Assembly: GCA_013286575.1 (NCBI GenBank)
Contig: JABDFL010000001.1
Coordinates: 9,905-73,904 of the forward strand
Length of the DNA: 64,000 nt
Reading direction: 5' to 3'
Source of the DNA: Candidatus Omnitrophota bacterium
GTDB taxonomy: Bacteria > Omnitrophota > Gorgyraeia > Zapsychrales > Fredricksoniimonadaceae
Shown: piece by piece, positions 5,192 through 63,453 of the stretch
Layout of the letters: each line of letters begins with the position of its first letter
How positions within the stretch are numbered: position 1 is the first letter of the stretch
Program-made: the position numbers and the translations under genes
Notes under the pieces: generated by a model
The model's database searches: none
Seen by the model: the letters and a program-made list of their open reading frames with translations, nothing else
Told to the model about the DNA's origin: nothing

Positions 5192-5216
5192 ATTATACCT
5201 CCGGGAGGTGTAATGG
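5190..5216. repeat. 27-nt near-perfect palindrome (REP-like hairpin) CCATTATACCTCC-G-GGAGGTGTAATGG. It overlaps the 3' end of the RAYT gene.
   Basis: Self-complementary with one mismatch. A second copy lies at 5513-5539. Confidence 0.7.
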
Positions 5217-5714
5217 TGTGGAAGCAGAAGAATAGGGCCACTCTTCAGGCGTTTTTATAATATTTTCTTTAACAGGATTGTAATGCACGTATTGGATCCG
5301 GTTATTCAATCCCTTTATATCCAGAATGATTCGGTTGCCAAATCGATTTTGCCATAATGGTCCCCGCCGATTGTGTCTTAAGTTGAAATAATTGGAATAA
5401 GCATTTAATGTCCTTCGCATAAAGGTTTCAATTCCCTTATTTTCCAATTGTTGAAGTATGAAATGGACGTGGGTGGGCATTAGGCAGAAAGCAATGATGT
5501 TTACTAAAGGGACCATTACACCTCCGGGTGGTGTGATGGCGGTTCTTTTTATTACGTAACTAAAAGGCCTGATATGTCCGTCATATCTGTAGTATTCCAT
5601 TAGCCCCAGCATTCTTTGGTATTCTTCTTTACAACTGAAGATCGTATACCCGTAGATGCTTTTGTTATAAATGTGATGGAATGATTTATTTTCAAAAGGA
5701 CAAAGGCGTTTCAT
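5193..5714 (-). CDS. REP-associated tyrosine transposase (RAYT), of the IS200/IS605 TnpA-like HUH Y1 family.
   Basis: 173 aa. HuH motif MPTHVHFIL. C-terminal block YVHYNPVKENIIKTPEEWPYSS matches the RAYT signature (Y...NPV...WP.SS). Both palindrome copies are translated within the ORF (ITPPGGVMV internally, TPLHLPEV at the C-terminus). Confidence 0.75.
   Translation of the reverse strand: MKRLCPFENKSFHHIYNKSIYGYTIFSCKEEYQRMLGLMEYYRYDGHIRPFSYVIKRTAITPPGGVMVPLVNIIAFCLMPTHVHFILQQLENKGIETFMRRTLNAYSNYFNLRHNRRGPLWQNRFGNRIILDIKGLNNRIQYVHYNPVKENIIKTPEEWPYSSASTPLHLPEV
5513..5539. repeat. Second copy of the REP-like palindrome (CCATTACACCTCC-G-GGTGGTGTGATGG, 2 mismatches), inside the RAYT coding sequence.
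   Basis: Same orientation as the copy at 5190-5216. It encodes an in-frame extra segment upstream of the HuH motif. Confidence 0.7.
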
Positions 5715-29655: not shown

Positions 29656-32561
29656 TCTGGCGCGTTGAAGTTAAACAAAAAGATGGGATGCTGGATCCCA
29701 TTGGACAATCCATTGCCCGAGACATCATTGATATGGGCTTTGGCATCTCCCAGGTGCGTGTCGTCTCGGTTTTTCTGCTGGAAGGCACCATCAGCCGCGA
29801 GGAAGTCAAGCGCATCGGCGATGAACTCCTGGTTGATCCTATCGTTGAGCAATACAGTTTTGATTTAAAACTCCCCCTGCAGTCAGTTGACCATCATGTC
29901 GTTGAAATAGCTTATAATCCCGGTGTCATGGACCCTGTGGAAGCCTCCACGATCAAGGGCATCCGCGATTTGGGTGTCGCAGGCATCAGTGCTGTGCGCA
30001 CCGCCCGGCAATACCATATTTACGGCAGACTGACAGCCAAAGAATTGGAATCCATCACTGCCCGCGTCTTGATGAATAAACTCATCCAGCACGTGGTAGC
30101 TGACCCTTCCCATGTCCCGACCACACTCAGTATCACGGGTGCATCCGCGTCCAAATTTGATGTGATGATCGTGGATTTGATCGGTGCCAATGATAAAAAA
30201 CTTCTCGAAATTTCCAAGAGCGGCCAGCTCTATTTAAATATTGATGAGATGAAGGCCATCCAGGCCCATTTTAAAAAAGAAAAACGTGATCCGACGGACG
30301 TTGAATTAGAAACCATTGCCCAGACCTGGAGCGAGCATTGCCGCCATAAGACTTTCAGGGGTGTTATCCGTTACCGGGAAGGCAAAAGCGGACGGCCCCA
30401 AATTATCCGCAGCCTTTTTAAAACCACCATTGCTGCCGTTACGTTGAAATTAAAGAAAAAATGGTGCATTTCAGTTTTTCATGACAATGCCGGGGTCATC
30501 GCTTTTGATAAAGATTATCATGTGTGTTTTAAAGTGGAGACCCATAATCATCCCTCAGCCCTGGAGCCTTTTGGCGGGGCCAACACGGGAGTGGGTGGCG
30601 TTATCCGTGATACTTTGGGGACCGGGCTTGCTGCCAAGCCTTTGTGCAATACCGACATATTTTGTTTTGCGCCGCCGGACACACCGGCAGCAGACTTGCC
30701 GCCCGGCACCCTGCATCCCAAGCGGGTCATGAAAGGCGTTGTTTCAGGGGTGCGTGATTACGGCAACAAGATGGGCATCCCGACGGTCAATGGGGCCATT
30801 GTTTTTGATAAACATTTTGCAGGCAATCCGCTGGTTTTTTGCGGCAATATCGGGCTCATCCCCAAAGGTAAAGAAATTAAACGTGTCAGCAGGGGGGATT
30901 TGATCGTGGCTGTGGGCGGACGCACCGGGCGCGACGGCATTCACGGCGCCACGTTTTCTTCGGGAGAGCTGACCAGTGAATCGGAAACAGTTTCTTCAGG
31001 CGCCGTGCAGATCGGCAATCCCATTGAAGAGAAAAAAGTACAGGATGCCCTGCTTAAAGCGCGCGAGGCCAATTTGTATTCTGCCATCACTGATTGCGGC
31101 GCCGGCGGGTTTTCTTCTGCCGTCGGAGAAATGGGCGAAAAGACAGGGGCACGGGTTGATTTGGATAAGGCCCCTCTTAAATATCAGGGCCTTAAATACC
31201 ACGAGATTTGGATTTCAGAATCACAGGAGCGGATGGTGATGTCTGTCCCTCCTCAAAACATCGAAGCCCTTCTTAAGATTTTTGAGGCAGAGAATGTGGA
31301 GGCGAGTGTTTTAGGTGAATTCGACGGCTCCGGCCGCCTGCAACTGTTTTTCCACGGCCAGCAAGTTGCTGACATGGACATGTCCTTTCTCCATGATGGC
31401 CTGCCTCAAATAACCAAGGAAGCTGTTTATCAAAAGCCCAAACTCCGTGTCATTCCCGCGAAAGCAGGAATCCATACAAGATACCGCCCTGGACAGGATT
31501 TAACCGAAAGCTTATGCATGGCCTTAAGCCATTTTAATGTGGCTTCCAAGGAAAGTATTATTCGCATTTATGATCACGAGGTGCAGGGAACAAGCGTTGT
31601 CAAGCCACTGGTAGGGGTTGCCACCGACGGACCATCAGATGCGGCGGTGATCCGCGGGCGTTTGGATTCCAAGCGCGGCATCGCGGTTTCCAACGGCATT
31701 AATGTGCGCTACGGCATGATCGATCCTTTTGGGATGGCTGCTTCCTGCATTGATGAAGCGATCCGTCAAATCATCGCGGTGGGAGGTTCGCTGGATCGCA
31801 TCGCCCTTCTTGATAATTTTTGCTGGGGAAACCCTGATAAGCCCGATCGTCTGGGGTCTTTGGTGCGCTGTGCCCAAGGCTGTTATAAAGCGGCCGTGGC
31901 TTTCGGCACTCCGTTTATTTCGGGGAAAGATAGTTTATATAATGAGTATACCCAAAAAGGTAAAAGCCTCGCGATACCGGGGACCATATTGATCTCCGCC
32001 ATCGGCATCATCGATGATGTGGGAAAAAGCGTCACCATGGATTTTAAAAAGGCGGGGAACAGTATTTATGCGATCGGCACAACCTTTGACGAACTGGGCG
32101 GGTCTGTCTATTTGGAAAATTTAGGGCAGTTGGGGCTTCATGCACCGCAGGTCAATTTTAAGATGGCAGTTAAAACATATAAGGCTGTAGAACGCGCAAC
32201 CAAGGCGGGTTTGATCGCCTCGTTACACGATTGCTCGGAAGGCGGTGCCGCGGTCGCTCTGGCGGAAATGGCCTTTGCCGGCGGATTGGGCGCCACGGTT
32301 TTATCAAAGAAATTGCCCTATAAGGGAAAGCAGGGACGGGAAGATATTTTGCTTTTTTCGGAAAGCAATTCACGCTTCATTGCTGAAGTCTCAGCTGGTC
32401 ATGAAAAAGCGCTGGCAAAGATTTTCAAAGGCGTTCCCATGGCCCGGATCGGCACGGTTGAGGCAAGCCCGGAATTTGTCGTCTACGGTCTTCATGACCA
32501 GCCGGTCATCAATGCCCGTATCGATGAATTAAAAGAAATCTGGAAGGCACCGTTGAGATAA
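29652..32561 (+). CDS. purL: Phosphoribosylformylglycinamidine synthase subunit PurL with an N-terminal PurS-like extension (probable PurS-PurL fusion).
   Basis: 969 aa, against about 740 for a small PurL. The first ~80 aa resemble PurS (VEVKQKDGMLDPIGQSIARDI...). The PurL core starts near WSEHCRHKTF. No separate purS gene is seen between purC and purQ. Confidence 0.8.
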   Translation: MIWRVEVKQKDGMLDPIGQSIARDIIDMGFGISQVRVVSVFLLEGTISREEVKRIGDELLVDPIVEQYSFDLKLPLQSVDHHVVEIAYNPGVMDPVEASTIKGIRDLGVAGISAVRTARQYHIYGRLTAKELESITARVLMNKLIQHVVADPSHVPTTLSITGASASKFDVMIVDLIGANDKKLLEISKSGQLYLNIDEMKAIQAHFKKEKRDPTDVELETIAQTWSEHCRHKTFRGVIRYREGKSGRPQIIRSLFKTTIAAVTLKLKKKWCISVFHDNAGVIAFDKDYHVCFKVETHNHPSALEPFGGANTGVGGVIRDTLGTGLAAKPLCNTDIFCFAPPDTPAADLPPGTLHPKRVMKGVVSGVRDYGNKMGIPTVNGAIVFDKHFAGNPLVFCGNIGLIPKGKEIKRVSRGDLIVAVGGRTGRDGIHGATFSSGELTSESETVSSGAVQIGNPIEEKKVQDALLKAREANLYSAITDCGAGGFSSAVGEMGEKTGARVDLDKAPLKYQGLKYHEIWISESQERMVMSVPPQNIEALLKIFEAENVEASVLGEFDGSGRLQLFFHGQQVADMDMSFLHDGLPQITKEAVYQKPKLRVIPAKAGIHTRYRPGQDLTESLCMALSHFNVASKESIIRIYDHEVQGTSVVKPLVGVATDGPSDAAVIRGRLDSKRGIAVSNGINVRYGMIDPFGMAASCIDEAIRQIIAVGGSLDRIALLDNFCWGNPDKPDRLGSLVRCAQGCYKAAVAFGTPFISGKDSLYNEYTQKGKSLAIPGTILISAIGIIDDVGKSVTMDFKKAGNSIYAIGTTFDELGGSVYLENLGQLGLHAPQVNFKMAVKTYKAVERATKAGLIASLHDCSEGGAAVALAEMAFAGGLGATVLSKKLPYKGKQGREDILLFSESNSRFIAEVSAGHEKALAKIFKGVPMARIGTVEASPEFVVYGLHDQPVINARIDELKEIWKAPLR

Positions 32562-32570
32562 AAATAGAAT

Positions 32571-32600
32571 GTCATCCCCGAATGTTTCTGTCGGGGATCT
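32571..32600. repeat. Hairpin repeat family B (GTCATCCCCGAATGTTTCTGTCGGGGATCT).
   Basis: 8-bp stem TCCCCGA/TCGGGGA. A second copy is at 34147-34177. Confidence 0.6.
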
Positions 32601-32614
32601 AATAAGAGGAGCAT

Positions 32615-33289
32615 ATGACAAAAATAAAAAAACTCGTCACAGTCCCTGATTTGGAAATGATGGAAGACCCCTGGCGCATTTTCCGCATCATGGCGGAATT
32701 TGTCGACGGATTTGAAGAGCTCAAAGACATTGGGCCCGCCGTGAGTATTTTCGGGTCTTCCCGCATCCATACCCTGCATTCCTATTATGACGCGGCAGAG
32801 AAGACCGCGGAATTATTAGTTAAGGCAGGTTATGCGGTGATCACCGGCGGCGGCCCCAGCATCATGGAAGCAGGCAATAAAGGGGCATCCAAGGCAGGCG
32901 GCAAATCCATCGGGCTTAACATTGACCTGCCTTTCGAACAAAAACCAAATGATTATATTAATCATCTGATCAATTTTCATTATTTTTTCTGCCGCAAGGT
33001 CTGTTTTGTCAAATACGCCAAGGCCTTTGTGATTTTTCCCGGCGGCTACGGGACCCTGGATGAATTATCAGAAAGCATCACGCTTATACAGACCCAGCGC
33101 ATGCAGCAATTCCCGGTCATCCTTTACGGAAGCAAGTACTGGAAAGGGCTTTTGGATTGGTTTAAAGGGCCTGTACTCCATGAAGGCTGCATTGATGTCA
33201 AGGATTTGGACATTGTGCAGACAGCGGATAAGCCCGAAGATGTTGTTAAGATCATCAAAAAGTTTTACAGCAAGAAAAAGAAAAAATGA
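32615..33289 (+). CDS. LOG-family protein (TIGR00730; cytokinin riboside 5'-monophosphate phosphoribohydrolase / nucleotide N-glycosidase-like).
   Basis: 224 aa: GGGPSIMEAGNKGA, PGGYGTLDEL. It sits inside the purine operon between purL and purQ. Confidence 0.8.
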   Translation: MTKIKKLVTVPDLEMMEDPWRIFRIMAEFVDGFEELKDIGPAVSIFGSSRIHTLHSYYDAAEKTAELLVKAGYAVITGGGPSIMEAGNKGASKAGGKSIGLNIDLPFEQKPNDYINHLINFHYFFCRKVCFVKYAKAFVIFPGGYGTLDELSESITLIQTQRMQQFPVILYGSKYWKGLLDWFKGPVLHEGCIDVKDLDIVQTADKPEDVVKIIKKFYSKKKKK

Positions 33290-34074
33290 CCCCCAATGTC
33301 AAAGTCATAGTCATTCGCACCGCAGGCACCAATTGCAACGAGGAGACAGCGTTTGCCTTCAGCCGTTTGGGTGCGCATGTGGATCAGGTGCATATCAATG
33401 CTCTGATCGCCGGCACTTTTAAATTAAGCGATTATCATATCCTGGCTTTGCCCGGCGGGTTTAGCTATGGTGATGATATTGCTTCGGGGCGTATTTTGGC
33501 CAATGAATTACGTTTGAAATTGGCAGAGGAGATCAAACAATTTATCCGTGACGGCAAATTAATTATCGGTATATGCAATGGATTCCAGATCCTGGCTAAA
33601 GCCGGTATTTTGCCCGGCCTCGGATGGAAGATTGGACAAGAAACAACGTTGTTCTATAATGATTCTGCCAAATTCGAGGCCCGTTGGGTGCATTTGAAGG
33701 TGGAAAGCCGTTGCGTGTGGACAAAAGGCATGCCCGGCCAGATTTATCTGCCCGTGGCCCACGGCGAGGGAAAATTCATCCCGCGCGAGAAGAAAGTCCT
33801 GGACGCGCTGACAAGTAACGGCCAAATCGTCCTGCGTTATTGCGCTCCTGATGGAAGCAAGCCTGCGTATCCGGAGAATCCCAACGGATCAACCGATGAT
33901 ATCGCCGGCATCTGCGACACCACCGGACGCGTCTTTGGCCTAATGCCGCATCCGGAACGTCATTTTTTATTCGAGCAACACCCATACTGGACACGCTTAA
34001 AGAAAACAAGCGATTTCGGCGACGGAGCCAAGATATTCGAAAACGGCATTAATTACGTGAAGGAAAATTTGTAG
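33286..34074 (+). CDS. purQ: Phosphoribosylformylglycinamidine synthase glutaminase subunit.
   Basis: 262 aa class-I glutamine amidotransferase. GICNGFQ nucleophile Cys and HPE catalytic His/Glu. Confidence 0.85.
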   Translation: MTPNVKVIVIRTAGTNCNEETAFAFSRLGAHVDQVHINALIAGTFKLSDYHILALPGGFSYGDDIASGRILANELRLKLAEEIKQFIRDGKLIIGICNGFQILAKAGILPGLGWKIGQETTLFYNDSAKFEARWVHLKVESRCVWTKGMPGQIYLPVAHGEGKFIPREKKVLDALTSNGQIVLRYCAPDGSKPAYPENPNGSTDDIAGICDTTGRVFGLMPHPERHFLFEQHPYWTRLKKTSDFGDGAKIFENGINYVKENL

Positions 34075-34079
34075 CGCCC

Positions 34080-34120
34080 GTGTCATTGCGAGGAGCCGGA
34101 GGCGACGAAGCAATCTTTTA
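34080..34120. repeat. Hairpin repeat family A (GTGTCATTGCGAGGAGC..GGCGACGAAGCAATCTTTT), copy 1.
   Basis: Begins 6 nt after the purQ stop. There are 5 copies in the window (34080, 34188, 43783, 61928, 63181). Confidence 0.7.
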
Positions 34121-34146
34121 ACACTGTCATTCCTTGGATTTTACAT

Positions 34147-34177
34147 TGTCATTCCCGAATGTTTTTGTCGGGAATCT
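34147..34177. repeat. Hairpin repeat family B copy (GTCATTCCCGAATGTTTTTGTCGGGAATCT).
   Basis: Stem ATTCCCGA/TCGGGAAT. Confidence 0.6.
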
Positions 34178-34187
34178 AGAACAAGTT

Positions 34188-34228
34188 GTGTCATTGCGAG
34201 GAGCTGAAGGCGACGAAGCAATCTTTTT
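34188..34228. repeat. Hairpin repeat family A, copy 2.
   Basis: GTGTCATTGCGAGGAGCTGAAGGCGACGAAGCAATCTTTTT. Confidence 0.7.
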
Positions 34229-34233
34229 AGAAT

Positions 34234-34261
34234 CGTCATCCTGAGCGTAGCGAAGGATCTC
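34234..34261. repeat. Hairpin repeat family C (CGTCATCCTGAGCGTAGCGAAGGATCTC).
   Basis: Only one copy in the window. It shares the GTCAT head with families A and B. Confidence 0.5.
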
Positions 34262-34285
34262 TAAAAGAATGACCTTGTAGCATGA

Positions 34286-34457
34286 ATATGGTTAAACGGT
34301 GTTGTTCCCGAAACGGGATATTTTTGCCGTCTGCTTCGGTTTACATCAAAAATGTTCTAAAGATTCTCTTCATTTGGAACATTTTTGACGTAAATCCTCG
34401 CAGACATTTGGCAAAAAATCCCTGAATGTTTCGTCCACAACACCATTTAACCATATA
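34286..34457. mobile_element. 172-bp imperfect palindrome, a MITE-like element or structured RNA, with 20-bp terminal inverted repeats (ATATGGTTAAACGGTGTTGT / ACAACACCATTTAACCATAT).
   Basis: Terminal arms match 19/20. The internal halves are also mutually complementary (e.g. TTTACATCAAAAATGTTC vs GAACATTTTTGACGTAAA). It lies immediately upstream of the AT-rich defence gene. Confidence 0.5.
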
Positions 34458-34515
34458 CGAGTGATTGCAAGTTAGAAAAGGTCGTTACTTTTAATATCGA
34501 ATTAAGAGGTGCTGT

Positions 34516-36222
34516 ATGAGGGTCACAACTTTTGATAAGGAAGTAAAGGATATTTTTAGCGGTAGTTTTTATCTAATCCCTAGGTTTCAAAGACCATATT
34601 CTTGGGATAGGGAAAATATTGAGGAATTTTGGTGCGATACAATTGCTGAAAGTGAAGGAGATTATTTTATTGGTTCAATCGTCGTTTTTAAAGATTCAAA
34701 AACAGATACATATGGCATTGTCGATGGACAGCAACGCCTAACGACAATAACTATGATTCTATGTGCATTGCGTAATGCTTTTAATGATCAGAATATGCAA
34801 TCTTTAGGGGATGGATTACATAATTTTGTAGAACGTCCTGATATAAATAATAAAAAAAGGTATGTTTTGAAACCAGAAACATCCTACCCATATTTTCAAG
34901 AATATATTCAAAAGAAAACAAAGCCCGACATTGTTCTTACTCCAGGAGTAGAAGAAGAGCTTCTTGAGAAAGCTTTTATGGCTATTTCTAGAAATATTCA
35001 ATCTACTGTCACATCAATTGTAAGTAACCGTTCTTTAAGCGAGAAAAATAAAAAAATTGAAATTGAGAAGAGTTTAATTGGCATTAGAGATAAAATCCTC
35101 AAGCTAAAGTTGATCTTTATCGAGTTGGACAGTGAAGATGATGCGTATATTATTTTTGAAACACTCAACACTCGAGGGAAAGATCTAAAAGTTTCAGATC
35201 TAGTGAAAAATCATATTACTAAACTCTTCAAACCCAAGAATGCGGATGTGGATTTACCAAAAGAACGTTGGAATAAAATAGTGGAATTGATTGACGAATC
35301 TGGGGCACAGCTAGAAGTTGACAACTTTATTCATTATTACTGGTTGTCACGCTATGAATTTGTTACTTTAAAGAAAATATTTAAACAAATAAGAAGGAAA
35401 ATAGATCAAAAAAATGCTGAAGGTTTTTTGAGATCTCTTGAGGAAGATGTCAAGACGTATCGTGAAATAAACGAAACGGTTTATAGGCCTTGGCAGAAAC
35501 AAGATTTAAGAATAAAAGAGTCATTAGATGCTATCAATTTATTTAAAGTAAAACAAGCTATGCCAATGTTGCTATCTGTAATGAGAGAATACAAAAGCGG
35601 AGGAATTCGACTTCCTAACGCAATTGAAACATTTACAAGTATTGAGAACTTTCATTTTGTGTTTACTGCTGTTACATCTCAAAGATCATCTGGAGGCATT
35701 TCATTTATGTATGCAAAAGCTGCTCGTGATCTTTGCGATGCGCCCAACATGAATGAAAAAATTAAGACCCTTAAAGAGTTACAAAGAAAACTTAAAAAAG
35801 GAAGACCGAGCAAAGATGAATTTGTTGCCAGTTTTCAGAATATTTTATATTCTAAGGAATTGTCGAAACAAAAAAAGCTCGTCCAATATATTTTGGCAAG
35901 AATAGCAGAGAAGCAATTTGGCGTGCCTATAGATTATGAAAAGATGACCATTGAACATCTAGCTTCAGAGAATCCTATAGAAGGCACTACAAAAATTCCA
36001 CCACAGTTCATTGCCCAGGTGGGTAATTTAATACTTGTCAATGACGAAACAAATGGAAAATTAAAGAATAAACTTTTTGATCAAAAAAAGAAAATACTTA
36101 TAGATTCGAAGTTGCCTTTGGATAAATGGATAAGTGGAAGTCGCGAATGGAATGTTAAAGAGATTATAAATCGTACTCGTGGCCTGGCTGAATTCGCTTA
36201 TACCAAAGTTTGGGATCTCTAA
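34516..36222 (+). CDS. GmrSD-like type IV (modification-dependent) restriction endonuclease: N-terminal DUF262 (ParB-like NTPase) plus C-terminal DUF1524 (His-Me finger).
   Basis: 568 aa. DUF262 motifs FQRPYSW and DGQQRLTT. DUF1524 motifs IEHLASENP and GNLILVNDETNGKLKNKLFDQKK. The gene is visibly AT-rich compared with the flanking pur genes. Confidence 0.75.
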   Translation: MRVTTFDKEVKDIFSGSFYLIPRFQRPYSWDRENIEEFWCDTIAESEGDYFIGSIVVFKDSKTDTYGIVDGQQRLTTITMILCALRNAFNDQNMQSLGDGLHNFVERPDINNKKRYVLKPETSYPYFQEYIQKKTKPDIVLTPGVEEELLEKAFMAISRNIQSTVTSIVSNRSLSEKNKKIEIEKSLIGIRDKILKLKLIFIELDSEDDAYIIFETLNTRGKDLKVSDLVKNHITKLFKPKNADVDLPKERWNKIVELIDESGAQLEVDNFIHYYWLSRYEFVTLKKIFKQIRRKIDQKNAEGFLRSLEEDVKTYREINETVYRPWQKQDLRIKESLDAINLFKVKQAMPMLLSVMREYKSGGIRLPNAIETFTSIENFHFVFTAVTSQRSSGGISFMYAKAARDLCDAPNMNEKIKTLKELQRKLKKGRPSKDEFVASFQNILYSKELSKQKKLVQYILARIAEKQFGVPIDYEKMTIEHLASENPIEGTTKIPPQFIAQVGNLILVNDETNGKLKNKLFDQKKKILIDSKLPLDKWISGSREWNVKEIINRTRGLAEFAYTKVWDL

Positions 36223-42381: not shown

Positions 42382-43805
42382 TACCGTTGTTTATTTATTA
42401 TCCTCAACTCTCCCTGGTCCGCGACGCGCTTAAGGGCAGCAAGCGCCGTGTGTTCCTGGTCGGAGGCGCCTTGCGCGATTATTATTTAAACCGCCGCGGG
42501 ACTGATTTTGATTTCGCTGTTGACCAGGGGGCCGTTGCCTTGTCCCGCCGATTAGCCCATCAGCTTAAAGCTGCTTTTGTCCTGCTTGACCGCGAGCATG
42601 GCAGTGCCCGTGTCGTCAAAAAGATAGATGGGGTGGTCTGTACTTTTGATTTCACCGATTGGCGGGGCAGGAGCATTCAAAAAGATTTAAATTTGCGCGA
42701 TTTTACCATTAACGCGTTGGCCGTGGATATTTTTGATAAAGACGCTGGCATCCTGGAGGTCAAAGGGTCCCGGCGGGACCTAAAAGCAGGTGTGGTGCGC
42801 ATGGTTTCCCCCCAGGTCTTTAGAGACGATCCTTTAAGGCTTTTACGCGCCTTTACCCTGCAGGCCACCCTTGGTTTTAAGATGGATGCCGGGACAGGCG
42901 TGCAAATCAAAAAAGACGCGCATTTAATTTCCCTGTCAGCTGCGGAAAGGATACGCGAAGAGATTTTTAAGGTATTGGCTTCACCCCGTGCGGCCGCAAC
43001 ATTATCCGCTATGGATAAGATCGGGCTTTTGCCTCAGGTTATCCCGCAGATCACTGTCATGTACGGTGTCCATCAGGGCGGTTATCATCATTTGGATGTT
43101 TGGCGGCATACGCTTGAAGTGCTTGCAAAGGTTGAAAAATTCATCGAAGAGCCGGGCGCTGATGAGCGCATGAAGGCGTATTGGCACCAGCCTATCGGCG
43201 GAGGGCACACGCGCTATGCGCTTTTGAAAATGGCCGCGCTTTTGCATGACGTAGGAAAACCGGAAACCCGGAAGCTTGAGGCGAAGCGCATGACTTTTCA
43301 CGGCCATGAGCATGCGGGCGAAAGGATAACCCGTCAGGTCGCCAAGCATTTGAAATTATCCGTTAAGGAACGTTTTTTTCTGGAAGATGCGGTAAGGATG
43401 CACCTGAGGCCGGGCTATCTGTCAAATTTCAAACGCCCCAGTGAAAAAGCGATATTCCGGTATCTGCGCGACACGAAAGATGAAGCCGTCAGTTTGGCAG
43501 TTCTGGGTCTGGCAGACCAGGCCGCGACATGCGGCCCCTTGACCACCAAAGCCAAGCATAGGCATCATGCTAAAATCTGCCACATGCTCATCGAACGTTA
43601 TTTTGAACTCAAAGACCGGAAGCCCCGGCAACGCCTGCTCACAGGCCATGATTTGATCAAGGTCCTGAAATTAAAACCTTCAGAGCTGTTTGGAAAAATC
43701 CTCTCCGGCATCGAAGAAGCCGCAGCTTTGGGTAAAATAAAAACAAAAGCCGAGGCACTGAATTTGGCTCGACAAATGAATGTGTCATTGCGAGGAACGA
43801 AGTGA
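42378..43805 (+). CDS. cca: tRNA nucleotidyltransferase (CCA-adding enzyme / poly(A) polymerase family) with an HD domain.
   Basis: 475 aa: FLVGGALRDYYLNRRGTDFDFAV. HD motif HDVGK. Its last 8 codons and stop lie inside a family-A repeat. Confidence 0.8.
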   Translation: MIPLFIYYPQLSLVRDALKGSKRRVFLVGGALRDYYLNRRGTDFDFAVDQGAVALSRRLAHQLKAAFVLLDREHGSARVVKKIDGVVCTFDFTDWRGRSIQKDLNLRDFTINALAVDIFDKDAGILEVKGSRRDLKAGVVRMVSPQVFRDDPLRLLRAFTLQATLGFKMDAGTGVQIKKDAHLISLSAAERIREEIFKVLASPRAAATLSAMDKIGLLPQVIPQITVMYGVHQGGYHHLDVWRHTLEVLAKVEKFIEEPGADERMKAYWHQPIGGGHTRYALLKMAALLHDVGKPETRKLEAKRMTFHGHEHAGERITRQVAKHLKLSVKERFFLEDAVRMHLRPGYLSNFKRPSEKAIFRYLRDTKDEAVSLAVLGLADQAATCGPLTTKAKHRHHAKICHMLIERYFELKDRKPRQRLLTGHDLIKVLKLKPSELFGKILSGIEEAAALGKIKTKAEALNLARQMNVSLRGTK

Positions 43806-43821
43806 CGAAGCAATCTTTTTA
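43783..43821. repeat. Hairpin repeat family A, copy 3, spanning the cca stop and the ygfZ-like start.
   Basis: GTGTCATTGCGAGGAACGAAGTGACGAAGCAATCTTTTT supplies the cca C-terminus ...SLRGTK* and the GTG start plus MTKQSF of the next gene. Confidence 0.7.
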
Positions 43822-44502: not shown

Positions 44503-45603
44503 ATGAGGGAAATAACATCTCCGAGGCCGAAGCAATTGGGCCTTTTAATTAATGCCATGCGGCTGTGCTTATCTATCTTTATATTATCTTTTTTATGCTG
44601 GAGTTTTGATGCCGGGGCCCAGGACCAGGTCCCTGGGCAGCAATTTTCATCATCCGTTCCCTCGCAATGGCAAATGACCCTGGATGAGATCAAATCTAAA
44701 GCACAGAACCTGGTCATTCAAAACAACGGGTTACAGGATGAATACCAGGAGTTAATGGAGTTGGCGCAGAAATTACAGCAGGCGATCGCGGACCAGCAAA
44801 GCAAAAATGAACAGATGGCCCGTTTTATACAAGAGCGGCACGGCCAGACAGACCAGCAGCTGCGTATCGGGGAATTGACCAAGAATATCCGGACAAAAAG
44901 CCAGCGAGTCAGCGTTTATGTTCAGCAATTGGAAAATTTAAACAGGAAACAGGCGGGCCTGGAACATAATATCCAGATGATGAAAGACACGATTTCAAAT
45001 ATAGAATTTCATCAGCAGGCAGAAAAGCATGAAGTCCAACCCTCTCAAAATACAGCGCAGCCCCGGGTTGATGATCAGCTGGTCCCATTGCGCAAGCAGC
45101 TTGAAGATAATATTAAGCAGGAAGTCCTTTTGGGGAATGAACTGGGGGCTTTAAAAGCCGGTGATAAAACAAAGAATTTGAATGCAGGCACCGTCGATTC
45201 GGAAAATAAACAGCTTCAGGCCCGTCTGGATGTTTTGCAGTCACAAATGGTACAGCACGAAAAAGAATCTTCGGACGCGCAAATAGCACAGGCCACGGCC
45301 CGTATGTATGATCACCTTAAAAAACGCAAGGATGAGCTTGAGGCCGACATTTATTCTTATGAGTTGCGCATGGACCAGTTAAGGCAATCTTCCTTGCTGG
45401 CAATATCCTGGCAGTTCAAGAAAAAGAAAATCGTCCACGAAATGGTACAGGCAGATGCCCGCAATAATCAGTTACGCTACAAGATCAAAGTATTGCGTGA
45501 GGACATTGGTGTTTTAAAAGACCAGGTGGCCCAATTAGAGCGCCAGGTGAATGCTGCCGGCCAAAGTAAAGATAACTTCGTCACTTTCAAGACTTCTGAG
45601 TAA
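44503..45603 (+). CDS. Secreted coiled-coil protein (Q-rich).
   Basis: 366 aa with a hydrophobic N-terminal segment (MRLCLSIFILSFLCWSF) and long heptad-like Q/E/L repeats. No catalytic domain. Confidence 0.5.
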   Translation: MREITSPRPKQLGLLINAMRLCLSIFILSFLCWSFDAGAQDQVPGQQFSSSVPSQWQMTLDEIKSKAQNLVIQNNGLQDEYQELMELAQKLQQAIADQQSKNEQMARFIQERHGQTDQQLRIGELTKNIRTKSQRVSVYVQQLENLNRKQAGLEHNIQMMKDTISNIEFHQQAEKHEVQPSQNTAQPRVDDQLVPLRKQLEDNIKQEVLLGNELGALKAGDKTKNLNAGTVDSENKQLQARLDVLQSQMVQHEKESSDAQIAQATARMYDHLKKRKDELEADIYSYELRMDQLRQSSLLAISWQFKKKKIVHEMVQADARNNQLRYKIKVLREDIGVLKDQVAQLERQVNAAGQSKDNFVTFKTSE

Positions 45604-60433: not shown

Positions 60434-61713
60434 ATGCCCTCACTTATCTAAACTCCTTTGTTAATTTTGAATCCCAGCTCCATAAACTGGGCCCTGAAGA
60501 TTTTAGCCTCAACCGCATTGAAAAGTTTTTGGATTTGGCCGGAAACCCGGCCAAGAATTTAAAGATCATCCATGTCGCAGGCACTAAGGGCAAGGGATCA
60601 ACCTGTGCGTTTTTAGCCGGTATTTTGCAGGAGGCCGGCTACAAGGTAGGGTTATATACCTCGCCGCACTTGCACAAGGTCAATGAACGTATCCGTATTT
60701 TAAATGCGGAGAATATCCGCTCCAAAGATGATTTTTGCGGCTCAATCAGCGACGATGAATTAGCTTCGGTGCTGGCCCAAATACGCCCTTTTGCCGCTGC
60801 CATCCAGAATGAGGGTAATATCCTTACCTATTTCGAAGTCCTGACAGTGGCGGCCTTGTGTTATTTTGCCAGGGCATGCGTGGACGTGGTCATTTTAGAA
60901 ACCGGTTTGGGCGGCCGTCTGGATGCGACCAATGCGGTTGATTCCTTAATTGCTGTGATCACACCGGTCAGTCTGGACCATGTCCGTATACTAGGCAATA
61001 CTTTAGGTAAAATAGCGGCAGAGAAGGCGGGCATTATAAAAGATTCCCGCCAGCAGGCCGTGATTGCTCCTCAAGAAAAAGAAGCCATGGATATTTTACT
61101 TCAACGTTGCCGGGAGTTTGGTGTCCATCCGGTCCTGGTCAATTTGGAAAAGTATAAAAATTTGAAAATCGGCCTTAAGGGCACGCATCAAAAGATCAAT
61201 GCCGCGACCGGCCTGGAAACGGTGGGGATTTTAAAGAAAATGGGGTTTCACATCAGTGATAAAGCGATCAGTGACGGATTAATTAATGTCCGTTGGCCCG
61301 GCCGTTTTGAATTATTGCATCAGGCGCCGGATGTGATCGTTGATTGCGCGCATAATGAAGCTTCTGCCCGGGCCTTGGCCCAGACCTTGAAGGGGGAATA
61401 TCATCAGCGACGGGTGATTTTAGTGCTGGGAGTCTCCCAAGACAAAGACGTGAAGGCCATTTGTTATTCTTTAAAGAATAGTGTAGCGCATATTATCCTG
61501 ACCAGGGCCGGCCATCCCCGGGCCCACTCTTTTAAGGAAGCAGAAGGTAAGGACTATTTTGGGGGGAAATCTTTTGAGATCATGGAAAGCCTGCCTCAAG
61601 CGCTGGAAAAGGCCCTGCAGCAGGCAGGCCCGCAAGATGTGATTTTAGTAACAGGTTCTGTTTTCGTAGTGGCAGAAGCAACGGAGTTCTTATGTACCAA
61701 TATAAAGGCCTAG
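60430..61713 (+). CDS. folC: Folylpolyglutamate synthase / dihydrofolate synthase.
   Basis: 427 aa: HVAGTKGKGST, ILETGLGGRLDATN. Confidence 0.8.
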   Translation: MNALTYLNSFVNFESQLHKLGPEDFSLNRIEKFLDLAGNPAKNLKIIHVAGTKGKGSTCAFLAGILQEAGYKVGLYTSPHLHKVNERIRILNAENIRSKDDFCGSISDDELASVLAQIRPFAAAIQNEGNILTYFEVLTVAALCYFARACVDVVILETGLGGRLDATNAVDSLIAVITPVSLDHVRILGNTLGKIAAEKAGIIKDSRQQAVIAPQEKEAMDILLQRCREFGVHPVLVNLEKYKNLKIGLKGTHQKINAATGLETVGILKKMGFHISDKAISDGLINVRWPGRFELLHQAPDVIVDCAHNEASARALAQTLKGEYHQRRVILVLGVSQDKDVKAICYSLKNSVAHIILTRAGHPRAHSFKEAEGKDYFGGKSFEIMESLPQALEKALQQAGPQDVILVTGSVFVVAEATEFLCTNIKA

Positions 61714-63176
61714 AAGACACGATTGCCGCCATTGCGACTCCTGCCGGACAAGGCGGGATCGGCATTGTGCGTATCAGCGGTAAGGATGCGATTACGGTCG
61801 CGGATGCGGTGCTTCGTCTTCAAGGGGACAAATCATTAGCGCAGTGCAAGAGCCATACGGTCCATTATGCCCGTGTCATTAGTCCCAATAGTGTCAAAAG
61901 GCCCAATAGCATCGACGTCGCAGAGTTGTGTCATTGCGAGGAGCGTTTTCCAGCGACGAAGCAATCTTTTTTGAAAAATGAAAATATCATTGATGAAGTT
62001 TTAGTAACATTGATGAAAGCACCAAAAAGTTACACCGCCGAAGACGTGGTCGAAATCAATTGCCACGGCGGCATGACTGTCCTGCGTGCGGTGCTTGAAG
62101 AAGTCTTGTCCGCAGGAGCGCGCCCGGCAACTCCGGGAGAATTCACCAAACGGGCCTTTCTTCATGGCCGTATGGATTTGGCCCAGGCCGAGGCAGTGAT
62201 TGATATCATCCAGGCACGGACTTCAAACTTTTTACGCCAGAGCCAGCATCAATTAAAAGGGGAATTATCGATCCAGCTTAATGCCATACGCGCAGAGTTG
62301 ATCAAGCTTTATACGATGGTAGAGGCATTGATTAATTTTCCCGAGGATGGCATTGACGCCCAAGGCCGTCAGCAAATTTTAGACCGCATCAGTATTCAAG
62401 AGAAGGGTATCGCTAAACTGTTGAAATCCTCCGAGAGCGGCCGTATCCTTAAAGAAGGCATACGCATCGTCTTATGCGGCAAGCCCAATGTAGGCAAATC
62501 TTCTTTACTGAACGCTCTTCTCAAAGAACAGCGCGCCATTGTCACCAATATCGCCGGCACCACCCGCGATGTCCTGGAAGAATCAGCGCAAATCAAAGGC
62601 ATTCCCATTTCATTAGTCGACACCGCCGGTATTTTGGAACCAAGGGATCTCATTGAAAAGGAAGCCATATCACGCAGCCATCTTTACATCAAAGGCGCTG
62701 ATCTGGTATTTTTGGTGCTGGACCATAGTCACCCGTTAGAAGAGCAGGACAGGCTGCTGATGCAGCAATTAAAAACCGCCAGGGTTTTGGTCGTAGTTAA
62801 TAAAATAGATTTAGAGGGCAAGATAGACCTGTCAGTGCCCAAAGGAATATTCGGCCCGGAGCATGTGATAGAAGTTTCAGCGCTTGAACCTCAATCCATG
62901 CAGGGCCTGGAAGCAAAGATCGTTGATTTGATCCTCAAGGACAAAGATCTCGATACCCACGGCATTCTGGTCAGCAATGTCCGTCATGTTAAGGCATTGG
63001 AAGAAGCGCAAAGAAACCTGCAAGACGCCGTCCGCCTGATGGACCAAAACACTTCCCTGGAATTTATCTCCGAAGAACTAAAAAGCGCCGTCAACCAGTT
63101 GGACGCCATCACCGGCCGCAACATCGACGAAGACCTCCTGGACCGCATCTTTTCCGAATTCTGTATTGGAAAATAA
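61692..63176 (+). CDS. mnmE: tRNA modification GTPase MnmE (TrmE), with a repeat-derived in-frame insertion in its N-terminal domain.
   Basis: 494 aa: IAAIATPAGQGGIGIVRISG, G-domain GKPNVGKSSLLN, DTAG, NKID, C-terminal CIGK. The N-terminal domain carries an extra segment (...ELCHCEERFPATKQSFL...) encoded by a family-A repeat. Confidence 0.85.
   Translation: MYQYKGLEDTIAAIATPAGQGGIGIVRISGKDAITVADAVLRLQGDKSLAQCKSHTVHYARVISPNSVKRPNSIDVAELCHCEERFPATKQSFLKNENIIDEVLVTLMKAPKSYTAEDVVEINCHGGMTVLRAVLEEVLSAGARPATPGEFTKRAFLHGRMDLAQAEAVIDIIQARTSNFLRQSQHQLKGELSIQLNAIRAELIKLYTMVEALINFPEDGIDAQGRQQILDRISIQEKGIAKLLKSSESGRILKEGIRIVLCGKPNVGKSSLLNALLKEQRAIVTNIAGTTRDVLEESAQIKGIPISLVDTAGILEPRDLIEKEAISRSHLYIKGADLVFLVLDHSHPLEEQDRLLMQQLKTARVLVVVNKIDLEGKIDLSVPKGIFGPEHVIEVSALEPQSMQGLEAKIVDLILKDKDLDTHGILVSNVRHVKALEEAQRNLQDAVRLMDQNTSLEFISEELKSAVNQLDAITGRNIDEDLLDRIFSEFCIGK
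61928..61972. repeat. Hairpin repeat family A, copy 4, in-frame inside mnmE.
   Basis: GTGTCATTGCGAGGAGCGTTTTCCAGCGACGAAGCAATCTTTTTT translates as (E)LCHCEERFPATKQSFL. Confidence 0.7.
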
Positions 63177-63180
63177 GTGT

Positions 63181-63223
63181 GTGTCATTGCGAGGAGGCGT
63201 AGCCGACGAAGCAATCTTTTTAC
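63181..63223. repeat. Hairpin repeat family A, copy 5 (GTGTCATTGCGAGGAGGCGTAGCCGACGAAGCAATCTTTTTAC), just after the mnmE stop.
   Basis: Same head and tail as the other copies; the central segment is variable. Confidence 0.7.
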
Positions 63224-63257
63224 GCTCCACGCCATCTAGGGCTGACGCTGATATATT

Positions 63258-63286
63258 TTGACAACCTCACTCAATGCGAGTAGACT
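63258..63286 (+). promoter_or_regulatory. Candidate sigma70 promoter: TTGACA, 17 bp, TAGACT. It would give a ~160-nt structured leader ahead of the radical SAM gene.
   Basis: The predicted leader contains the hairpins CCCCGAAC-gttta-GTTCGGGG (63332-63352) and GCCGCACC-gcag-GGTGCGGC (63376-63396). Confidence 0.35.
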
Positions 63287-63453
63287 TGCGTTTATTCGGG
63301 TGTTGTGTTTTCTTCGAAGGTAGTAGAAGGCGGTCCCCGAACGTTTAGTTCGGGGAAAAGCAGCCTGGTGACTAGCGATGCCGCACCGCAGGGTGCGGCG
63401 AGCGTGCCTGAGAAGAAAATACAATGCCTGAATATATGCGTGAGTAGGTGAGT

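Follow-up and report, generated by a model that had tools for sequence, protein, structure and literature searches.

Short hairpin repeats carrying a CGTC tag constitute a described group of REP sequences, in which the tag is often TGTC and can also read CCTC, the stems start with AT, the unpaired tail is short and several families occur per genome (PMC3733652). Members of this group lie within 20 bp of the 3' ends of ORFs, include in-frame copies inside genes and never flank RAYT genes (PMC3733652). Examples are dRS3 and the Rickettsia palindromic elements RPE-4 and RPE-6, which correspond to families CGTC-4 and CGTC-1, respectively (PMC3733652). The Neisseria NTS, CGTCATTCCCGCGMAVGCGGGAATCYRG, is an extension of dRS3 and the target of SsnA, a 94-aa GIY-YIG protein that binds and cuts the NTS as single-stranded DNA (ssDNA) only, on one strand only, and that does not act on RNA (PMC11893778). 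The three bases before the NTS palindrome govern cleavage by SsnA, and the C after the palindrome is most critical for binding; around homologues of ssn, hairpins like these are common on either flank, giving an arrangement reminiscent of an IS (PMC11893778).

Hairpins of this general kind were found in an Omnitrophota genome, in a continuous stretch of 64 kb that is referred to below as the window. Immediately downstream of purQ (ORF 33286-34074, with its stop at 34074; Pfam GATase_5, E 7e-82), the segment 34080-34261 contains four complete hairpins from three families in the order A, B, A, C together with one orphan half-head, all on the + strand (Table 1). The initial annotation had reported four GTCAT-headed elements here, which are present with the sequences it described, and had overlooked the fifth head at 34126; the family A copies it placed at 43783, 61928 and 63181 and the family B copy it placed at 32571 were also recovered, the latter as a B-like copy. 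The window as a whole contains ten complete copies, six of them outside the cluster. All ten are on the + strand, which also carries nearly all genes of the window, and the GC skew is positive across its whole length.

Table 1. Hairpin elements and the orphan half-head in the 64-kb window.
Element	Positions	Strand	Description
NTS-like copy TGTCATTCCCGCGAAAGCAGGAATCCA	31448-31474	+	In frame inside purL; peptide VIPAKAGIH; one stem mismatch
Family B variant ATCCCCGA/TCGGGGAT	32570-32601	+	9 nt past purL stop; fold z -4.10
Family A, copy 1	34080-34119	+	Starts 6 nt past purQ stop; GT-GTC tag (GTC at 34082), palindrome 34085-34114 with outer stem ATTGC/GCAAT, internal loop GAGGA/GACGAA and inner stem-loop GCC-GGA-GGC; C 34115, then TTTT (T run)
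Orphan half-head GTCATTCC	34126-34133	+	22 nt (start to start) upstream of full B element
Family B	34147-34178 (core 34148-34176)	+	TGTC tag, 8-bp stem ATTCCCGA/TCGGGAAT, 9-nt loop, tail CTA
Family A, copy 2	34188-34228 (core 34190-34223)	+	Exact GTCATTGCGAGG at 34190
Family C	34234-34261 (core 34235-34259)	+	CGTC tag, stem ATCCT/AGGAT, tail CTC
Family A, copy 3	43782-43820	+	Inner stem AC/GT
Family A, copy 4	61928-61972	+	In frame inside mnmE; reads CHCEERFPATKQSF
Family A, copy 5	63181-63221	+	6 nt past mnmE stop

Exact matches to the family A sequence GTCATTGCGAGG occur five times in the window, at 34082, 34190, 43784, 61930 and 63183. With a sixth match at 44660 on the - strand, which has one mismatch, the count stands at 6 against 0.30 expected, a number that none of 100 shuffles reached. 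The family B and C 12-mers taken alone are not significant within the window, and both families were accepted as real because of the shared architecture and of exact matches in viral contigs (84 stretches for B and 92 for C). A generic search for GTC followed by any 5-bp hairpin and a C gave 31 occurrences in the window against a mean of 24.6; since this count was too noisy, GTCAT-specific finders were used instead, and the NTS-like copy at 31449 came to light when GTCA with a hairpin behind it was searched for. The Rfam scan of the window at gathering thresholds returned two tRNAs only, and an E-value scan of 34000-34560 returned only spurious miRNA-precursor matches.

All ten copies share a signature: a palindrome opening with AT is preceded by an unpaired tag, which reads TGTC in nine copies and CGTC in one, and is followed at once by a C. 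Their tails read CT plus one further base, except for CCA in the copy at 31449. The CGTC/TGTC tag, the stems starting with AT and the short unpaired tail are those of the CGTC-tagged REPs, which the window elements also resemble in the presence of several families in one genome, in positions within 20 bp of ORF 3' ends, in in-frame genic copies and in having no RAYT link. The initial reading of these sequences as short dispersed hairpin repeats of REP type, in several families with a common head, agrees with this likeness, whereas its qualification of them as BIME-like does not fit, because all copies in the window are arranged head-to-tail on one strand with no alternation of orientation. The described CGTC families have 8-9 bp stems with 4-5 nt loops and occur mostly as head-to-head dimers; in contrast, the window copies are single or head-to-tail and have a longer loop (B) or two-part stems (A and C). 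The 8-9 bp stem with a 4-5 nt loop that characterizes CGTC-1 to CGTC-4 was seen only in the copy at 31449, which is of the CGTC-1/NTS type. Omnitrophota are not among the five phyla listed for CGTC-tagged REPs (PMC3733652).

Features in common with NTS and dRS3 are the clustering of copies and a hairpin that is oriented by the GTC ahead of its palindrome and has a C behind it; in addition, the window family B and the copy at 31449 have the ATTCCC...GGGAAT arms. The elements are also inverted repeats of 20-50 nt able to form a hairpin, as expected of an Ssn-related motif. Unlike the NTS, family A has an outer stem of 5 bp, an internal loop that is rich in purines and conserved, and an inner hairpin that varies. 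Two of the ten window copies lie wholly within genes (mnmE and purL) and a third overlaps an ORF end, compared with about 2% of the NTS in N. meningitidis; further differences are the host, a member of the Omnitrophota, and the lack of an ssn gene in the window. The published SRM pattern, HGTCWYN(0-2)YYVSBRHN(0-5)WNVSBRGN(0-2)RNCYNB, has no match in the window, and families A and C fall outside it. The same script found nine matches around gonococcal ssnA and four in Azospirillum, indicating that the pattern is narrower than the family of elements.

The units of family A follow the formula GTC-ATTGC-GAGGA-[variable stem-loop]-GACGAA-GCAAT-C. Family C has a stem of 5 bp plus GC pairs that is weak by energy, and its interior contains GA/GA mismatches and an inner GC-GTA-GC. 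The hairpin that the initial annotation had attributed to each unit was borne out thermodynamically for family B, with a DNA fold of -6.7 kcal/mol (z -4.05), and not for families A and C, whose stems are weak (-2 to -4 kcal/mol) and fold no better than shuffled sequences; family B, with its variant, is the only significant one. For family A, the evidence of structure comes from covariation. Among 327 collected copies there were 166 distinct inner segments, of which 127 can form at least two Watson-Crick pairs, compared with 12.7 (maximum 23) in 1000 shuffles. The pair types vary (GC, AT; CG, TA, GC), so the inner stem covaries and it is the structure that is conserved, not the sequence alone. 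As an unbiased check of the flanks, the palindrome core was searched with no requirement on the adjoining bases, in loci picked by their protein only; of the 188 family A cores, 178 are preceded by NGTC and 185 are followed by C.

The three families are distributed widely, and the possibility that they are unique to this window does not hold. The exact core of family A was found in more than 120 IMG/VR viral contigs among the matches listed. For the flavour of family A present in the window (GTG...CTTTT), GTDB genomes gave more than 102 stretches, mostly from the Omnitrophota, with other carriers in the Bacteroidota (Olleya, Chryseobacterium, Flavobacterium), Doudnabacteria, Nitrospirota, Ignavibacteriales and Anaerolineae. 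Different families share contigs far above chance.

Family A-bracketed ORFs for GIY-YIG proteins were found in one viral contig (L117) and two Omnitrophota genomes (L201 and L149). The three proteins were aligned, and 80 metagenome loci encoding this GIY-YIG subfamily were then fetched. A GTC-hairpin-C element is present at most 200 nt from the gene in 72 of the 80 loci and on both sides of it in 53, with a density of 6.4 per kb near the gene versus 0.72 per kb further off; 148 of the 195 elements near the gene start with GTCATTGCGAG. Typically, a single + copy closely precedes the gene and a single - copy closely follows it. The partner protein of family A is about 95 aa long and consists of a single GIY-YIG domain (Pfam E 9.5e-15). 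Between its Omnitrophota representative and the gonococcal homologue of 94 aa, the identity is 45% over 89 residues (E 4e-28). The ORF of the gonococcal protein sits among NTS copies in PLSDB records, and the hairpin-ssn-hairpin layout around these homologues is a further likeness to the NTS/SsnA system. The records that provided the gonococcal ssnA locus, NZ_CP119140.1 and NZ_CP119142.1, are 2.17-Mb Neisseria gonorrhoeae chromosomes filed as plasmids in PLSDB.

Homologues of the GIY-YIG protein in Azospirillum, Sinorhizobium, Spirosoma and Planktothrix are each flanked by their own GTCAT hairpins. The flanking elements are NTS-like in Neisseria and Azospirillum, and the set in Planktothrix includes a family C-like form, ATCCTGA...GAAGGATC. 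For families B and C, the likeness to the NTS and this one Planktothrix locus suggest a link to Ssn; the viral loci selected for family B or C, 1.6 Mb in all, yielded no GIY-YIG gene. Single-protein searches of viral contigs for GIY-YIG proteins and RAYTs gave almost nothing, and the PDB yielded UPF0213 and UvrC GIY-YIG domains only, with no Ssn structure. No ORF for Ssn or another GIY-YIG protein is present in the 64-kb window (best E 0.58), and hence we infer the link to an Ssn enzyme in this genome, which presumably encodes one elsewhere. The most likely partner enzyme of the hairpins is a small GIY-YIG ssDNA nuclease of the Ssn type and not a RAYT.

A RAYT had been the candidate mobilizing enzyme of the initial annotation, by analogy with the GTAG REP/BIME elements, which are likewise short tagged hairpins with high copy numbers and positions at gene 3' ends; in their single-stranded form they are recognized by a small nuclease, and the cut falls close to the tag. 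Indeed, the ORF at 5193-5714 is RAYT-like: it carries HUH and Y motifs and matches Pfam Y1_Tnp (26.4 bits, cut-off 23) and NCBIfam REP_Tyr_transpos (71.8, cut-off 80), and RAYTs also act on ssDNA hairpins with a short 5' tag. However, GTAG is absent from all window copies, which are tagged NGTC (TGTC or CGTC), and RAYTs have the HUH/Y1 fold as opposed to the GIY-YIG fold of Ssn. GTAG REPs flank their RAYT gene, whereas no GTCAT hairpin occurs in the flanks of ORF 5193-5714. Homologues of this ORF were compared in six loci (L305-L310) that represent four other contexts; upstream of the gene they have perfect palindromes of a quite different type, ACCTTC..CCGG..GAAGGT, and no GTCAT elements. A further copy or part-copy lies downstream of the gene in two of these contexts (L307 and L308/L309), for example ACCATCACAACCCCCGGGGTTGTGATGGT, which is found on both sides of the RAYT-like gene in L307. 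Palindromes of this type are absent from the window and so also from the flanks of ORF 5193-5714. Loci rich in family A have no RAYT homologue, none being found in the 223 fetched loci, nearly all of which were chosen for family A, and the co-localizing gene is that of the GIY-YIG protein; CGTC REPs have been reported never to flank RAYTs (PMC3733652). The RAYT link is not supported, mobilization of the hairpins by the Y1 transposase of the window is highly improbable, and we consider this gene a bystander.

Within the known Ssn/NTS-type system, family A stands out by its structure and by its very wide distribution. More broadly, the hairpins of the window are most likely non-autonomous repeats of the TGTC/CGTC-tagged REP superfamily, of the same kind as dRS3/NTS and the Ssn-related motifs, that would spread by means of Ssn. 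This interpretation draws on the shared tag and tail, the covarying inner stem of family A, the tight bracketing of Ssn homologues by family A, family C-like and NTS-like hairpins, and the presence or absence of elements at orthologous sites (see below). A counter-point is that the stems of families A and C, with 5 bp and an internal loop, are unlike those of the described CGTC families. Under the proposed mechanism, each unit in the single-stranded + strand would form a hairpin with A-T as the opening of its stem. The single-domain nuclease would make its contacts with the unpaired GTC that immediately precedes this stem and with the C that immediately follows it. Ssn would bind the hairpin and nick the ssDNA a few bases upstream. 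The hairpin-ssn-hairpin units would represent the apparent autonomous form and the numerous solo hairpins the copies dispersed in trans, which would persist where they do little harm, just past stop codons and in permissive protein loops. On the strength of their sequence features, all three families are putative substrates for cleavage by Ssn, and Ssn presumably also spreads them. To our knowledge, transposition by Ssn has never been demonstrated, Neisseria included.

With hairpins in inverted orientation at its two ends, the ssn gene resembles an insertion sequence with terminal inverted repeats, so that the solo elements could be viewed as decayed terminal repeats of one larger insertion sequence. 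The proportions make such an origin very hard to credit: viral loci totalling 1.07 Mb contain 334 family A-type elements and a single ssn gene, every copy is complete and precisely bounded, and no ssn remnants adjoin the copies in the window. It is possible, but we consider it rather doubtful, that the hairpins are the ends and dispersed copies of an active ssDNA-hairpin mobile element driven by the GIY-YIG protein (Ssn) with a copying chemistry of its own. Footprints that would fit such an element are orphan half-heads upstream of full copies, repeated independent occupancy of orthologous sites by different families and orientations, and near-identical 25-nt cores across phyla; were it real, the purine-rich internal loop of family A would form a distinct recognition module.

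Orthologous sites provide evidence for the insertion of these elements into genes. The product of mnmE (61692-63176 in the window) has 494 aa versus 463-470 aa in relatives at about 80% identity. The extra residues are located in a loop of the N-terminal domain, and family A copy 4 is missing from the 80%-identical orthologues. Compared with the relative L490, the insertion is a clean, in-frame addition of 54 nt that includes about 12 nt upstream of the element and its T run. The same MnmE loop is occupied in a distant Omnitrophota orthologue (P0084, L492 699-840) by B-type hairpins in the opposite orientation, which encode the peptide GFPTKALGNDK. The site just past the mnmE stop holds family A in the window and a canonical NTS in the related Omnitrophota contig L491, and it is empty in L490. 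In the purL linker (31380-31540 in the window), the relative P0160 has the peptide SFPRKRES, which is an NTS-like element read in another frame, and purL of several close relatives is called as two ORFs that are split exactly at the site of the NTS-like element. The insertion hotspot suggested by the initial annotation finds its counterpart in the re-use of sites: orthologues are occupied repeatedly in the loop of MnmE, in the linker of purL and directly past the stop of mnmE. At an ORF end, the reading frame for the CCA-adding enzyme takes its final codons and its stop from the family A copy at 43784. A literature search for the encoded peptide motif gave no match.

Similar to the Rickettsia palindromic elements, the genic copies are palindromes inserted in frame in housekeeping genes without destroying them. 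The Rickettsia elements differ in their host lineage and in size, RPE-1 being far larger, whereas the window-type elements have struck the same mnmE loop independently, with different families and in different orientations. Two other features were noted near these genes. A LOG/lysine-decarboxylase-like ORF (32615-33289) lies between purL and purQ, and the region 63236-63420, downstream of family A copy 5, contains small GC-rich hairpins that have no GTCAT head, GGTCCCCGAACGTTTAGTTCGGGGA (63333-63357) and GCACCGCAGGGTGCGGCG.

The positions of the window elements 6-10 nt past stop codons, their co-orientation with genes and the runs of four to six T after the family A copies raise the question of a role in RNA, as terminators or 3' mRNA stabilizers for which the elements would be retained, and REPs in general are found at ORF 3' ends (PMC3733652). 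Family A copies in other genomes are co-oriented and anti-oriented to their flanking genes in equal numbers (21 vs 21 and 15 vs 15), and unrestricted viral-contig matches usually have no T run after the tail C. Within the window itself, the terminator scan flags none of the elements and reveals no enrichment, the low folding energies of A and C speak against termination, and the copies inside mnmE and purL cannot serve as terminators; a partner nuclease that is inactive on RNA, as reported for SsnA (PMC11893778), also disagrees with such a function. A terminator role is weakly supported at best, and retention of the elements mainly for an effect at the RNA level appears improbable. By GC skew, no lagging-strand bias of family A was detected in the genome loci either (78 vs 84). 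With neither a gene bias nor a GC-skew bias of family A elsewhere, a lagging-strand ssDNA model has no general support, in contrast to the window, where ten of ten copies are on the same strand.

The orphan half-heads, defined as the first 8 or more nucleotides of an element, show a marked asymmetry. In relation to 1549 full elements, 101 were located upstream and six downstream. They lie 21-25 nt from the full element on the same strand, separated from it by a pyrimidine-rich spacer; the half-head at 34126 is one of them, another example is found in L493 (1300-1406), and Planktothrix has three half-units in tandem. The orphan half-heads may be the footprint of a copying mechanism. Together with the two-part stem of family A and the repeated occupancy of the same sites in orthologues, their location upstream of full copies is a minor novelty of this analysis.

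For the window itself the outcome is mostly corrective, the RAYT being a bystander. On a larger scale, a candidate enzyme, Ssn, is assigned to a very common class of repeats in uncultured bacteria (Omnitrophota, CPR, Bacteroidota and Nitrospirota), repeats that give rise to spurious 'hypothetical proteins' and to odd insertions in housekeeping proteins. A toolbox of ssDNA-cutting enzymes has been proposed (PMC11893778), to which family A and its cognate Ssn subfamily would add a new enzyme/site pair. The presence and absence of elements at orthologous sites, along with the orphan half-heads, offer handles on how the hairpins multiply.

A structure of another type follows the cluster. Between the last GTCAT element and a GmrSD-type gene lies a near-perfect long hairpin of 173 nt (34286-34458; RNA fold -84.7 kcal/mol, z -12). 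Its only Rfam matches are spurious ones to miRNA precursors, and its core has no match in viral contigs. A second copy is present in the related Omnitrophota contig L491 (2981-3111), directly after the canonical NTS that follows mnmE, with a 131-nt core at 87% identity; both copies have self-complementary outer arms, but of different sequence. The GmrSD-type (type IV restriction) gene, at 34516-36222, follows the pur genes, the repeat cluster and the long hairpin, and the cluster may mark the junction with a variable, defence-related segment.
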